Shown piece by piece: positions 9,496 through 34,090 of a DNA stretch of 39,305 nucleotides (position 1 is the stretch's first letter; the number at the start of each line of letters is the position of its first letter). The stretch comes from a virus (Duplodnaviria; Heunggongvirae; Uroviricota; Caudoviricetes). The position numbers and the translations under genes are program-made. Under the pieces are notes generated by a model. It was not told the DNA's origin and searched no databases. It worked only from the letters and a program-made list of their open reading frames with translations. Where the stretch lies: IMG/VR virus record IMGVR_UViG_2706794689_000009; one strand, 5' to 3'.

Positions 9496-10018
9496 ATGAA
9501 TCGCGCTTCCCTGATTACCTTAATACATGTCGCAAAACGCGATCTACAGCTTGACCATGATACCTATACATCCGCGCTGCTGGCAGCCACCGGCAAATCC
9601 AGTTGCCGTGATATGTCACCCGGTGAGTTATCCCGCGTGCTGGATGTTTTCAAAAAACGCGGTTTTAAAGTGCGTCAGANNNNNNNNNNNNNNNNNNNNN
9701 NNNNNNNNNNNNNNNNNNNNNNNNNNNNNNNNNNNNNNNNNNNNNNNNNNNNNNNNNNNNNNNNNNNNNNNNNNNNNNNNNNNNNNNNNNNNNNNNNNNN
9801 NNNNNNNNNNNNNNNNNNNNNNNNNNNNNNNNNNNNNNNNNNNNNNNNNNNNNNNNNNNNNNNNNNNNNNNNNNNNNNNNNNNNNNNNNNNNNNNNNNNN
9901 NNNNNNNNNNNNNNNNNNNNNNNNNNNNNNNNTGCTGGCAGCCCTGGATATGTCGGAACGTGCAGTGATGAGTTATGAGCGTGTTTGCAGGCTGTATGAA
10001 AAATCATTCCCCCGTTAA
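9496..10018 (+). CDS. gemA: GemA-like early regulatory protein, interrupted by N-mask 9680-9932
   Basis: N-terminus MNRASLITLIHVAKRDLQLDHDTYTSALL...LSRVLDVFKKRGF fits the Mu gp16/GemA family. A C-terminal piece after the mask ends at 10018. Frame continuity across the mask cannot be verified. Confidence 0.55.
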
Positions 10019-10337: not shown

Positions 10338-10597
10338 NNNNNNNNNNNNNNNNNNNNNNNNNNNNNNNNNNNNNNNNNNNNNNNNNNNNNNNNNNNNNNN
10401 NNNNNNNNNNNNNNNNNNNNNNNNNNNNNNNNNNNNNNNNNNNNNNNNNNNNNNNNNNNNNNNNNNNNNNNNNNNNNNNNNNNNNNNNNNNNNNNNNNNN
10501 NNNNNNNNNNNNNNNNNNNNNNNNNNNNNNNNNNNNNNNNNNNNNNNNNNNNNNNNNNNNNNNNNNNNNNNNNNNNNNNNNNNNNNNNNNNNNNNNN

Positions 10598-11167: not shown

Positions 11168-11557
11168 GTGAACAATCCCTTACCGGCCCTGATTGCCGGA
11201 GGCTGTATGGCGGCGCTGGGGGTGATGAGCGTGCTGGCTGCCGTGGTATGGGGAATGCACCAGAAGACGCAGCGCCTTGAGGACAATAATCATGTGCTTG
11301 TGCGTGAACGGGACGAAGCCCGTCTGGTGCTGGCAAACCAGCAACGCACCCTGCAACTCATTTCACAAATCAGCAAGGCGGCCACGAATGAAAAACAGCA
11401 GAACATGCAGCACAGCGAGGAACAGCAGAGCATTGTCCGCCGGTCACTGGCAACGGTGCCTGCTGCCGCTGTGCCTGTGCCTGATGATGTGGCTGACCGG
11501 GTGCGGCGGGCCGTCTGTGAAATACGTGCCGGTGAAGCCGGTGCCGATCCCCGCTGA
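11168..11557 (+). CDS. Rz-like inner-membrane spanin (start uncertain)
   Basis: Frame 11036-11557 contains one TM segment LPALIAGGCMAALGVMSVLAAVVWG followed by a charged coiled-coil-like region. GTG 11168 places the TM near the N-terminus; upstream ATGs would overlap the endolysin. Confidence 0.55.
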   Translation: MNNPLPALIAGGCMAALGVMSVLAAVVWGMHQKTQRLEDNNHVLVRERDEARLVLANQQRTLQLISQISKAATNEKQQNMQHSEEQQSIVRRSLATVPAAAVPVPDDVADRVRRAVCEIRAGEAGADPR

Positions 11558-11759
11558 ATGGCTGGCTGACTGCCTGGTCCCTCCCGCGCCGCAGCCGTTC
11601 ACGTTTGGTGCATCGGTCACTTACAACCTGCAACTGCTGGCGGTGATTAAAAACTGCAACGTGGACAAGGCCAGCATCCGCCGTCTGGAGACACAGCGAC
11701 AGCATGAATTTACTGATATGGCCGGAACGACTGCTGTTCCGGCAGGAAAGACGAAGTAA
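11388..11759 (+). CDS. Rz1-like outer-membrane lipoprotein spanin, overlapped architecture (start uncertain)
   Basis: Alternate frame inside and beyond Rz carries a lipobox LTGC followed by a proline-rich mature region PSVKYVPVKPVPIPAEW...PPAPQP. Confidence 0.5.
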   Translation: MKNSRTCSTARNSRALSAGHWQRCLLPLCLCLMMWLTGCGGPSVKYVPVKPVPIPAEWLADCLVPPAPQPFTFGASVTYNLQLLAVIKNCNVDKASIRRLETQRQHEFTDMAGTTAVPAGKTK

Positions 11760-11769
11760 GGAAAAAGGT

Positions 11770-11997
11770 ATGGATGATTCAGATTGTGCTCAGGCAGTCA
11801 TGGAGCGTGCAACAGAACGCGCCCTTTGTGACCGGCTGACACGTAAGCGCCGGGTGGCGGAGACACCGGGCAGGCGTGTATGCGCGGACTGCGGGGGTGA
11901 CATTCCGGCTGCCCGTCTGGTTGCCGTGCCGGATGCCATCCGTTGTGTGAACTGCCAGAACATCATGGAGGCCGGTCATGTGGGTCAGCATCGTTAA
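11770..11997 (+). CDS. TraR/DksA-family C4 zinc-finger protein
   Basis: MDDSDCAQAVMERATERALCDRLT...CADCGGDIPAARLVAVPDAIRCVNCQ: CxxC-(17)-CxxC arrangement typical of phage TraR-like proteins. AGGAAAAAGG ribosome-binding site before the ATG. Confidence 0.6.
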   Translation: MDDSDCAQAVMERATERALCDRLTRKRRVAETPGRRVCADCGGDIPAARLVAVPDAIRCVNCQNIMEAGHVGQHR

Positions 11998-12289
11998 AGA
12001 TTATGTCGTGCCGATCCTGTCGGCAACGGCCACAGCCGGGGGGATCTTCATGGCGCTGATGCGCAAAACCTTTGTCCCCCGCGAGGCCTTTGAAAAACTC
12101 TCCGACCGGGTTGAGCGGGTGGAGAGCCGGATTTCCGGCCTGCCCACGCAGCAGGAGGTGAACAGACTCAATATCGAAATCACCACCCTGCGCGGTGAGC
12201 TTAAGGCCACCAATGCCACCCTGAAATCCGTCTCCCATCAGAACGAACTGCTGCTGGAGCAGGCTGTAAGGAAAAAACACAATGAGTGA
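11978..12289 (+). CDS. Small membrane protein with coiled-coil (Mu gp25 position; possibly the SAR-endolysin releasin)
   Basis: 103 aa with N-terminal TM VVPILSATATAGGIFMALM, then a coiled-coil. Lies after the lysis genes as in Mu. Function inferred from position only. Confidence 0.45.
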   Translation: MWVSIVKDYVVPILSATATAGGIFMALMRKTFVPREAFEKLSDRVERVESRISGLPTQQEVNRLNIEITTLRGELKATNATLKSVSHQNELLLEQAVRKKHNE

Positions 12290-12572
12290 TTTCATTACTG
12301 AAGATCAGCGTCTTGTCATTCTGCGGTCGCTGGCGGATTACAACGGCGAACTGGGCGAATCCGTGCTTCAGGACTGCCTGGATGATTACGGTCACCGCGT
12401 GTCCCGCGACACCGTTCATACCCACATTGCCTGGCTTGCCGAGCAGGGACTGGTGCGTAAGCGCACGCTTGTTAACGGTTATTTCATCGCTGAACTGACC
12501 GGCCGGGGTCAGGATGTGGCGGAAGGCCGCGCCACCGTTCCGGGTGTGAAGAAACCACGCGCAAGGGGGTAA
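12282..12572 (+). CDS. Hypothetical protein (Mu gp26 position)
   Basis: 96-aa ORF overlapping its neighbours in the late operon. Confidence 0.5.
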   Translation: MSDFITEDQRLVILRSLADYNGELGESVLQDCLDDYGHRVSRDTVHTHIAWLAEQGLVRKRTLVNGYFIAELTGRGQDVAEGRATVPGVKKPRARG

Positions 12573-12574
12573 CG

Positions 12575-13156
12575 ATGGATAAGCCAGCGCGTGGCCGTGT
12601 ACGCAAGGTGGATTTGCTCCCCGACAGCATCCGTAAGCCGCTGCTGGAAATGCTGCGTGAAAAACGTCTGACGCAGGTCCAGATCCGCGAGGAAATCAAC
12701 CGTCTGATCCGTGAAGCAGGTCTGCCGGAAGAGCAGCAGCTCTCACCGGCGGCCATCAGCCGGGAAGCCTCCCGTAATGAGCTGATTGCCCGTAATCTGC
12801 GTGATTTACGCGAGCAGACAAAAGCCATGATGGCCGAACTGGGGGATAAGCCGACCGGTGAAACCACGGCACTGATTCTGGAGATGTCCCGTGCCCTGAT
12901 GTACCGCCGTCTGCGTGCCGCCACCGAATCCCTGAACAGCGACAGCGATGTGGATATGCGCCTTATTAAGGACATCCTCCTGTCGGCACAGCGTGCAGAA
13001 AGTGCCGCCGAGCGCAGCATTAAGCGTGAAAAAGAAATCCGGGCCGCATTTGCTGAAGAGATGGCGAATGCGGTCACCGATGAGTTGCGCGGCGTGGATG
13101 GCATGAGCGAGCAGATCGAATTCCGTATCAGGCAGATGCTGCTGGGTAAGGCGTAG
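12575..13156 (+). CDS. Putative terminase small subunit-like protein (Mu gp27 position)
   Basis: 193 aa, helical and charged. Immediately precedes the terminase large-subunit region. Confidence 0.6.
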   Translation: MDKPARGRVRKVDLLPDSIRKPLLEMLREKRLTQVQIREEINRLIREAGLPEEQQLSPAAISREASRNELIARNLRDLREQTKAMMAELGDKPTGETTALILEMSRALMYRRLRAATESLNSDSDVDMRLIKDILLSAQRAESAAERSIKREKEIRAAFAEEMANAVTDELRGVDGMSEQIEFRIRQMLLGKA

Positions 13157-13166
13157 GAGGTGAATC

Positions 13167-13415
13167 ATGGCAACAGATAACCGCTCACTGATGAGCAGTG
13201 CCCATCAGAAAGCATTCAGTCTTGCAACACAGTTACCTCCTGAAACCATAAAGGTATGTCGTGAGTTGACTGAACTCAGCATTGCCGGGGAAATATCCCT
13301 GGAACAACTGCATTCGCTGCTGGCAGAGGCTGCCACTGATGAGTTGAGCGGCGTGGACGTGATGACTGAAGAGCTTGAGTCCCGAATCAAAAGCATTCTG
13401 ACAGGTAAAGCATGA
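13167..13415 (+). CDS. Mini-protein sharing the C-terminal motif of the preceding gp27-like protein
   Basis: 82 aa, strong AGGAGGTG ribosome-binding site. Its C-terminus ATDELSGVDVMTEELESRIKSILTGKA parallels VTDELRGVDGMSEQIEFRIRQMLLGKA at the end of 12575-13156. Confidence 0.5.
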   Translation: MATDNRSLMSSAHQKAFSLATQLPPETIKVCRELTELSIAGEISLEQLHSLLAEAATDELSGVDVMTEELESRIKSILTGKA

Positions 13416-15079
13416 TGAACAAAGCCAGAGAAACGTCGCCTTCACTGATGCAAATGACGCCTCCCCGCAAAATTGATCTGTCAGGTGAAAAAGCCCTGCT
13501 GGGCGTGGATGTGCCGGACAGCCTTGATTTGCCCGGTGATATGCCGGTGTTTCTGGATTATCAGGCCCGCTGGTTTGCAGATGAAAGTCAGGTCTGCATC
13601 GCGGAGAAATCCCGCCGCACCGGTCTTACCTGGGCGGAAGCCGGGCGTAACGTCATTACTGCTGCAAAACCGAAGCGTCGTGGTGGCCGCAATGTGTTTT
13701 ATGTGGGATCAAAGCAGGAGATGGCGCTGGAATATATTTCTGCCTGCGCGCTGTTCTCCCGTGCCTTTAACCAGCTGGCAGATGCTGATGTGTATGAGCA
13801 GACATTCTGGGATCGGGATAAAAAAGAAGAAATTTTGACCTACATGATCCGCTTTCCGAACAGTGGATTCAAAATTCAGGCATTGTCTTCCCGTCCGTCA
13901 AACCTGCGCGGCCTTCAGGGGGATGTGGTGATTGATGAAGCCGCGTTCCACGAGTCACTGGATGAGCTTCTCAAGGCGGCAATGGCGCTCACTATGTGGG
14001 GCGCGCGCGTGCGTATTATCTCCACGCATAACGGCGTCGATAATCTGTTTAATCAGTACATTCAGGAAGCCCGCGAGGGGCGCAAGGATTACAGCGTCCA
14101 CCGCATAACCCTGGATGATGCCATTGCGGACGGGCTGTACCGTCGTATCTGTTACGTCACCGATCAGGAATGGTCACCGGAAAGCGAGCAGAAATGGCGT
14201 GATGATCTCTACAAAAACGCCCCGACCCGTGAGGATGCCGACGAGGAATACGGCTGTATCCCGAAAAAATCCGGCGGTGCCTATATCCCCCACGCGCTTA
14301 TTGAAATGGCGATGATCCGCGACATCCCGATTCTGACGTTTGAAGCCCCGGACAACTTCATCAGCCGTGCCGCATGGCTGCGTGAATCGGAAGTTTTAAC
14401 CTGGTGTGAAGAACATTTAAAACCGCTTTTAGAGAAATTAAATCCCCGTTCCCGCTTCAGCTTCGGGGAAGACTTTGCCCGCACCGGTGACCTGTCCTGC
14501 TTTGTGCTGCTGGAAATCACCGAATCCCTGGCAAAGCGCGAGGTGTTTCGCGTGGAGCTGCGCAACCTGCCGTATGCCCAGCAGGAACAGGTGATGATGT
14601 ACATCCTGACCCGCGTTCCGGCGCTGGTCGGTGCGGCGTTCGACGCCACCGGTAACGGCGGCTATCTGGCAGAGGCCGCACTGCTGGCCTTTGGCCCGGA
14701 CATCATCGACTGCGTGATGTTGTCGCCGAAGTGGTACGGCGAGTGGATGCCAAAACTGAAAGCCGAGTTTGAAGATCAGAATATCCTCGTCGCCCGCCAT
14801 CAGACCACGCTTGATGATTTGCGCCATGTGAAGGTAGTGAATGGTATCCCGCAAATCGACAAGGGGCGCACGAAGGACCAGAACGCAACGGCTGCGAACG
14901 CCCGCCGCCATGGTGATTTTGCCGTGGCGCTCTGTATGGCAAACCGGGCGTCATACATGGAGGGCTTCATCCTGGATGAATCAGCCTGTCAGGCGCTACA
15001 GGAGCGGTCGCGGGCAATGGAGGGCGGTTATCGTGATGACGATGAGGCATATCATGAATTTGATCGGGGGGGCTGGTAG
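13412..15079 (+). CDS. Terminase large subunit
   Basis: 555 aa. Position and length match Mu gp28; ATPase-like N-terminal half and nuclease-like C-terminal half with acidic residues. Overlaps upstream stop. Confidence 0.85.
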   Translation: MMNKARETSPSLMQMTPPRKIDLSGEKALLGVDVPDSLDLPGDMPVFLDYQARWFADESQVCIAEKSRRTGLTWAEAGRNVITAAKPKRRGGRNVFYVGSKQEMALEYISACALFSRAFNQLADADVYEQTFWDRDKKEEILTYMIRFPNSGFKIQALSSRPSNLRGLQGDVVIDEAAFHESLDELLKAAMALTMWGARVRIISTHNGVDNLFNQYIQEAREGRKDYSVHRITLDDAIADGLYRRICYVTDQEWSPESEQKWRDDLYKNAPTREDADEEYGCIPKKSGGAYIPHALIEMAMIRDIPILTFEAPDNFISRAAWLRESEVLTWCEEHLKPLLEKLNPRSRFSFGEDFARTGDLSCFVLLEITESLAKREVFRVELRNLPYAQQEQVMMYILTRVPALVGAAFDATGNGGYLAEAALLAFGPDIIDCVMLSPKWYGEWMPKLKAEFEDQNILVARHQTTLDDLRHVKVVNGIPQIDKGRTKDQNATAANARRHGDFAVALCMANRASYMEGFILDESACQALQERSRAMEGGYRDDDEAYHEFDRGGW

Positions 15080-33471: not shown

Positions 33472-33736
33472 ATNNNNNNNNNNNNNNNNNNNNNNNNNNN
33501 NNNNNNNNNNNNNNNNNNNNNNNNNNNNNNNNNNNNNNNNNNNNNNNNNNNNNNNNNNNNNNNNNNNNNNNNNNNNNNNNNNNNNNNNNNNNNNNNNNNN
33601 NNNNNNNNNNNNNNNNNNNNNNNNNNNNNNNNNNNNNNNNNNNNNNNNNNNNNNNNNNNNNNNNNNNNNNNNNNNNNNNNNNNNNNNNNNNNNNNNNNNN
33701 NNNNNNNNNNNNNNNNNNNNNNNNNNNNNNNNNNNN

Positions 33737-33840: not shown

Positions 33841-34090
33841 NNNNNNNNNNNNNNNNNNNNNNNNNNNNNNNNNNNNNNNNNNNNNNNNNNNNNNNNNNNN
33901 NNNNNNNNNNNNNNNNNNNNNNNNNNNNNNNNNNNNNNNNNNNNNNNNNNNNNNNNNNNNNNNNNNNNNNNNNNNNNNNNNNNNNNNNNNNNNNNNNNNN
34001 NNNNNNNNNNNNNNNNNNNNNNNNNNNNNNNNNNNNNNNNNNNNNNNNNNNNNNNNNNNNNNNNNNNNNNNNNNNNNNNNNNNNNNNNNN

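Follow-up and report, generated by a model that had tools for sequence, protein, structure and literature searches.

A mini-gene between the terminase genes of Mu-like Escherichia coli prophages appears to be an in-frame chimera ending in a borrowed small-terminase tail

The mosaic recombination joints and the morons of temperate phages are described by the Hendrix/Juhala model. The term 'moron' also appears in work on phage JBD26, in which a Tab/anti-Tab cassette lies between the genes for the small (TerS) and large (TerL) terminase subunits, with the anti-Tab following TerS in the late operon (PMC10884400). Small terminases offer another point of reference, as the C-terminal moieties of lambda gpNu1 and P22 gp3 bind TerL (PMC9611059). 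Here we analyse a mini-gene between TerS and TerL of a Mu-like prophage, and compare it with these systems.

The window, by which we mean the whole stretch of 39,305 nt that was analysed, is a Mu-like prophage of E. coli in which the gene order around the mini-gene is that of Mu. Over the stretch tested, prophages of strains 102651 and TOE17 and of one further genome match it at 100% identity. Upstream of the mini-gene lie a TraR/DksA-like gene, a DUF2730 gene (gp25) and the winged-helix gp26 (12282-12572), followed by the genes listed in Table 1. Omega is ~0.06 for gp26 and ~0.03 for gp27 across 10 prophages; for gp28 it is about 0.08-0.09, except in codons 2-16, where it is ~1 (2 synonymous and 7 nonsynonymous events). 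No solved structural relative of the gp27 family was found. Several features of the region stand apart from the mini-gene itself. Four runs of N, each of 250-263 nt, occur in the window (9680-9932, 10338-10597, 33474-33736 and 33841-34090); one is in the Mor/lysozyme region upstream of the mini-gene, and none touches it. At the 3' end of the DUF2730 gene, about 120 nt (~12120-12240) are 63-72% identical to the related prophages L001 and L009 amid neighbouring sequence of 90-98% identity, and appear to form another local mosaic patch. One Logan contig encodes a 291-aa gp26-gp27 read-through fusion (P0013) in which the gp26 stop is lost; a single assembly has this fusion, which is a true variant or else a sequencing error.

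Table 1. Features of the TerS/TerL junction, in window coordinates
Feature	Position	Strand	Remarks
gp27, small terminase (TerS)	12575..13156	+	193 aa; PF11985 (Phage_Mu_Gp27) E 3e-33; phrog_426 E 2e-54
gp27 tail, codons 163-193 (repeat copy A)	13061..13153	+	Most conserved part of the family
Shine-Dalgarno AGGAGGT of the mini-gene	13155..13161	+	Overlaps the gp27 TAG stop; 5 nt before the ATG
Mini-gene	13167..13415	+	82 aa, ATG start; apparent in-frame chimera; phrog_30922 (unknown function)
X-derived part, aa 1-51	13167..13319	+	Three helices predicted; has homologues that stand alone as small genes at this site
gp27-tail-derived part, aa 52-82 (repeat copy B)	13320..13412	+	From a second gp27 allele (compact type)
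TGATG stop/start overlap, mini-gene/gp28 (TerL)	13413..13417	+	As gp27/gp28 in L001 and a Vibrio phage
gp28, large terminase (TerL)	13415..15079	+	phrog_2 E 5e-43; portal gene next downstream
Hypervariable gp28 5' end (~first 16 codons)	13415..13460	+	Right-hand edge of the exchangeable cassette

The mini-gene starts 10 nt after gp27 on the same strand, directly after TerS in the late operon. The original prediction of an 82-aa ORF with a strong Shine-Dalgarno (SD) and a particular C-terminus proved accurate in coordinates, AGGAGGT and ending alike. This SD is invariant across the aligned copies, and an identical arrangement of gp27 end, SD and start occurs in the sister prophage L009; because the SD matches the consensus, the mini-gene is very probably translated. 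We place the TerL start at 13415 because the ATG at 13412 is not conserved, being changed from A to C in L004-L007. PGAP annotates the mini-gene as a CDS in every genome fetched, and its product matches the full length of phrog_30922 (E 6.9e-52, positions 2-82 of the 82-position profile), the family under which it is already catalogued, outside the gp27 family. Pfam, NCBIfam, PADLOC and PDB sequence searches returned nothing for the mini-protein or for its N-terminal part. The composition of the mini-gene (GC 49%, GC3 48%) differs from that of gp27 (58% and 66%) and gp28 (55% and 64%). A simple, crude consensus scan of positions 11500-14000 found no sigma-70-like promoter on either strand and no plus-strand terminator around the mini-gene, and the sole terminator-like site touching it is on the minus strand (13199-13180); the mini-gene therefore lies inside the late operon. 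No RNA structure masking the TerL start was detected beyond shuffles (z +1.4).

The resemblance between the ends of the two proteins is well beyond chance. The last 31 residues of the mini-protein are identical to those of gp27 at 18 positions (58%; BLASTP, E 3e-10), as are 16 of the 26 C-terminal residues singled out by the original prediction, whose parallel between the two C-termini is thereby confirmed. When both family alignments were compared with hhalign, the only segments to pair were mini-protein residues 51-82 and gp27 162-193 (probability 96.5%, E 1e-9), and gp27 matched the phrog_30922 profile at positions 51-82 alone (E 6e-8). The DNA-level repeat is degenerate, with 62 of 93 nt identical and a longest near-exact block of 15 nt. 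A 15-nt near-repeat (GCTGCTGG...) is shared by the 3' extremity of gp27 (13138-13152) and the joint inside the mini-gene (13316-13330), and may be either microhomology at the joint or chance. Outside the tail the likeness ends: the 82-aa protein has no PF11985 match at E<=0.1, it does not match the small-terminase family phrog_426 (hhalign spans 32 columns only), and its N-terminal part has no hhalign profile similarity to gp27 1-161, so that it is without the HTH-like region of gp27. We had also considered an internally deleted gp27 that keeps the HTH and the tail, an idea based on a likeness by eye between 'LPPETIK...GEISLEQLHSLL' and 'LPDSIRK...RLTQVQIREEI', and rejected it as hhalign aligned the tail only.

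In the gp27 family alignment, which reaches from E. coli to Vibrio, the tail is the best-conserved segment; its final 21-25 aa are still recognisable in Pseudomonas Mu-like phages. The family motif reads DELRGxDG(M/I)SE..E.RI...L.GKA, with R172 and G176 invariant. This motif is recognisable in the mini-protein, in which 13 of the 16 gp27-invariant residues survive and the terminal helix keeps most of its hydrophobic face; all copies of the mini-gene carry R172S, G176V and S178T at gp27-invariant positions. The AF2 model of the mini-protein (pLDDT 72) has helices at 5-22, 25-39 and 45-60, in the N-terminal part, then a low-confidence loop at 61-67 and a terminal helix at 68-79. The corresponding model of gp27 is poor (pLDDT 54) and places a loop at 172-178 and a terminal helix at 179-189. 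The predicted secondary structure of gp27 is TerS-like, with short N-terminal helices followed by three long helices; the three helices modelled for the mini-protein are short, unlike the long coiled helices of gp27. Fold searches of the mini-protein model against PDB and BFVD returned nothing with E<0.5.

The N-terminal part belongs with a small accessory gene that follows gp27, which we name X. An exhaustive profile search of 1.84 billion representatives returned six proteins in total. One, P0132 (67 aa), matches profile positions 1-56 (E 1e-10, 54% identity) and is without the gp27 tail. It is encoded between gp27 and gp28 in L009, where it has the SD of the mini-gene and starts 10 nt after a gp27 with a tail identical to that in the window; downstream, 120 nt of spacer separate it from a gp28 that has another N-terminus. 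Compared with L009, the window shows 92.5% identity from the gp27 start through codon 34 of the mini-gene, where the similarity breaks, and 97.8% from 13460 onwards. Yersinia phage Tongde consists of Mu-like flanks (98.7% and 96.8% identical to Mu) with a 420-bp insertion exactly between gp27 and gp28. The insertion, at 2357-2776 of the record (L002), holds two small ORFs, one X-like and unannotated and the other phrog_21398, and the gp28 behind it is without an obvious SD. Tongde X is 43-48% identical to the first 21 aa of the mini-protein and 26% identical to P0132 over 57 residues, and is a weaker relative. Within the mini-gene there is also a smaller mosaic patch at 13170-13217 (codons 2-17), seen in L003 and L017-L019; some copies begin MEKNIRALII(S/R)AR(R/H)EAF, not MATDNRSLMSSAHQKAF, and are closer to the N-terminus of Tongde X.

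As to the tail, it had been predicted to duplicate that of the preceding protein, and this did not hold up. L001 is a Mu-like element that lies within an Stx2c phage and has no mini-gene; its gp27 tail is nearer to the mini tail (72 of 93 nt, dS 0.61) than is the adjacent gp27 tail (62 of 93 nt, dS ~1.6). We thus rejected a local tandem duplication of the neighbour's tail, since a different gp27 allele is closer. The first 60 nt after the mini-gene stop, the start of gp28, match L001 at 39 of 60 positions, against 19 of 60 for the sequence that follows gp27 in the window. L001 and a Vibrio Mu-like phage have a compact junction, where gp27 stop and gp28 start overlap as TGATG. The original suggestion of a duplication remnant that is still translated comes close in that the tail is paralogous, and misses that two thirds of the ORF are the unrelated gene X.

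Sliding identity places all differences among the fused (window), compact (L001) and X-alone (L009) prophages at ~13100-13470, between flanks that are about 95-98% identical. On these alignments, the mini-gene has a chimeric anatomy with a tail of foreign origin, and the TerS/TerL junction behaves as an exchangeable cassette with at least three alleles (compact, X alone and X::tail). The gp27 3' end of L001 is first like copy A and then like copy B (~78% identical in the tail end, 65% in the gp28 start). Because this B-like part is so much less similar than the flanks (~97%), the relationship between L001 and the fused type is old, and for the same reason we rejected the idea that L001-type compact phages are recent deletion derivatives generated by recombination between the two repeats. 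By parsimony over few taxa, X alone would have preceded the fusion.

The distribution of the fused gene is narrow. It is present, at 90-100% identity, in 25 of the 232 E. coli records with a match; in the other 207 only the tail and gp28-start part aligns, as gp27/gp28 junctions. IMG/VR holds eight loci with the mini-gene, all 93-100% identical, and its protein clusters all come from E. coli. Two scans of GTDB species representatives did not find it, tblastn with the mini-protein matched no Pseudomonas phage, and a second copy of the gp27 tail was present in none of the 65 phage records containing that tail. The fused gene is also absent from the Yersinia Mu-like phages and the two closest phage records; a check for it in related Mu-like genomes, proposed with the original prediction, gave an intact frame in 18 of 18 copies of one lineage and absence from Mu, D108 and SfMu. 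The fused gene is thus confined to one E. coli prophage lineage. A short Logan contig (L020, from ERR987418; protein P0011) joins the first 24 mini-gene codons to the region of a baseplate (GpP-like) gene, and is probably a large internal prophage deletion or an assembly chimera.

Selection was assessed by site-wise counts in ten prophages (the window, L003-L008 and L017-L019), and pairwise Nei-Gojobori values agree. The genuine gp27 tail has 15 synonymous events and 1 nonsynonymous (omega ~0.02), and the mini tail 7 and 8 (omega ~0.36, P=0.047), indicating that constraint on the borrowed peptide is relaxed relative to the true tail in the same genomes. For the mini-gene as a whole the counts are 19 and 32 (omega ~0.53, P=0.024), and for the X part omega is ~0.6, not significantly below 1. 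All 18 DNA copies have an intact ORF without indels, and eight of them start with GTG. With intact copies at dS values as high as ~0.3 and an omega under 1, the mini-protein may be under some selection, although power is low. We rejected the lack of stop codons as evidence of selection, given that under neutrality it has a probability of ~0.2 with ~51 substitution events. There are departures: L017 carries L70P, which puts a proline into the terminal helix of the mini tail; two protein clusters (P0003 and P0004) have in-frame deletions at the X/tail joint; and one copy (P0010) is frameshifted. In L005 (E. coli JE86-ST05) the mini-gene is intact and the lysozyme and gp28 genes are frameshifted, so this prophage is decaying. 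The mini-gene is dispensable in close relatives, which do without it.

The reading that we favour, at a probability of roughly 0.6, is that the mini-gene is a translated, weakly selected chimeric accessory ORF, derived from a mosaic joint, that preserves coupling into TerL, with the tail as a passenger. An old recombination event at the TerS/TerL junction would have created the mini-gene as its in-frame joint. The left part, comprising the gp27 end, the strong SD and codons 1-~51, would come from an X-after-gp27 arrangement such as that of L009 or, more distantly, Tongde, and the right part, codons 52-82 and the first ~15 codons of gp28, from a compact TGATG arrangement. The resulting X::gp27-tail fusion would be co-transcribed in the late operon. 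As the mini-gene ends exactly on the TerL start, it would restore the native termination-reinitiation coupling that an inserted gene otherwise breaks, and ribosomes would be handed to TerL as in the compact gp27/gp28 design. Such coupling is suggested by the geometry of the overlap, and the need for it is called into question by L009 and Tongde, which express TerL without a TGATG overlap. We infer that selection acts mainly to hold the frame open into the TerL start, together with whatever X does, while the borrowed tail drifts as a passenger and not as a working terminase-binding module. The mini tail might still bind to some degree, given the invariant residues that it keeps (13 of 16) and its largely preserved hydrophobic face.

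Other explanations differ in what they take to be under selection. The original prediction held that the product could modulate packaging. The gp27-like tail would then dock the 82-aa protein onto TerL or into the TerS ring, where it would compete with or tune TerS-TerL assembly or tether X to the terminase. The conservation of the gp27 tail from E. coli to Vibrio and Pseudomonas phages would fit such a role, as would the TerL binding of TerS C-termini in lambda and P22, the residues and helix-loop-helix layout kept by the mini tail, and a gene with a strong SD in the late operon that adjoins TerL. The claim that TerS C-termini contact TerL is sound for these two phages and, for the Mu gp27 family, putative. 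Moreover, R172 and G176 are replaced in every copy, the tail has an omega of 0.36 against 0.02 for the genuine tail of the same genomes, one lineage has L70P, the mini-gene is missing from sister phages whose terminase genes are about 95-98% identical, and the duplicated tail was not met again among 65 phage records. The modulator proposal therefore finds no support here, and we consider it unlikely. A more elaborate version is less probable still: X::tail as a natural tethered regulator, in which the TerS peptide would dock on TerL or on the TerS ring and bring X into the packaging complex, tuning headful initiation or serving as a dominant-negative decoy for other Mu-like phages with nearly identical TerS tails, whether co-resident or superinfecting. 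Should the fusion protein bind TerL, the TerS-TerL interface of Mu could readily be probed with it.

If selection were instead on the X domain, X could function as a moron-type accessory protein of the late operon, perhaps in anti-defence or anti-exclusion as the JBD26 anti-Tab does, its tail tolerated or mildly useful. This is doubtful, though we rate it above the packaging proposals. The TerS-TerL gap of Pseudomonas Mu-like phages holds Tab/anti-Tab, with the anti-Tab directly after TerS on the same strand (PMC10884400), and X occupies the same place in three arrangements, has atypical GC and GC3, is polymorphic for presence and absence, and has a moderately confident three-helix prediction. 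Yet BLASTP at E<=10 detected no similarity to JBD26 gp30 or gp31, PADLOC, Pfam and NCBIfam gave no match, and omega for the X part is not significantly below 1. Nor was a minus-strand partner gene found: we rejected a Tab-like gene on that strand as the antisense ORFs are Ser-rich and of low complexity, have variable or internal stops and are not conserved, with no promoter at 11500-14000. At the other extreme, the mini-gene could be a neutral recombination scar, an ORF by chance that is untranslated or translated without consequence. High omega, the non-significant absence of stops (P~0.2), the narrow distribution and the frameshifted copy P0010 would all sit well with a neutral leftover. The consensus SD in all copies, the preservation of initiation by both ATG and GTG variants, the lack of indels in 18 DNA copies, an overall omega below 1 (P=0.024) and a stop locked onto the TerL start speak against it, and we regard a wholly neutral origin as the most improbable of these alternatives.

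As matters stand, the mini-gene is an ordinary hypothetical gene restricted to one lineage, unusual in the TerS tail that it has borrowed in frame. It offers a clean, datable case of phage mosaicism making new proteins, with three cassette alleles between near-identical flanks, one of them fused in frame to the best-conserved peptide that the small terminase has. The same peptide under omega 0.02 in TerS and 0.36 in the mini-gene constitutes a useful natural experiment on what the gp27 tail needs to function. The TerS/TerL junction would also seem to be an accessory-gene hotspot in enterobacterial Mu-like phages, parallel to the Pseudomonas Tab/anti-Tab site.

Set beside described systems, gp27 and the mini tail resemble lambda gpNu1 and P22 gp3 in having a short flexible C-terminal helix, which in the terminases comes behind the oligomerisation helices, with a helix-loop-helix layout predicted for both; the mini-protein differs from these terminases in lacking an HTH, oligomerisation helices and invariant tail residues. 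As in the JBD26 Tab/anti-Tab system, the TerS-TerL gap of a transposable phage is occupied by a small accessory gene (~83 aa, fold unknown), in a cassette that is present or absent among phages with terminase genes >90% identical. The mini-gene has neither sequence similarity to that system nor a minus-strand defence partner with its own promoter, and JBD26 gp30, unlike the mini-protein, has no TerS-derived tail. Membership of the Tab/anti-Tab system accordingly fails, and what holds is an analogy between putative accessory hotspots. The stand-alone X genes (P0132 in L009 and the Tongde ORF) share with the mini-gene a homologous N-terminal ~55 aa and the same position, SD and spacing after gp27; unlike it, they have no gp27 tail and do not overlap TerL, from which a spacer (L009) or another small ORF (Tongde) separates them. 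The mini-gene has its joint in frame inside a coding sequence, giving a chimeric protein, and, with no promoter or terminator of its own detected by the crude scan, it is not a classical autonomous moron. Like morons and mosaic joints, it is an added gene of atypical composition in a variable cassette, flanked by conserved sequence and with identity breaking off sharply where genes end.
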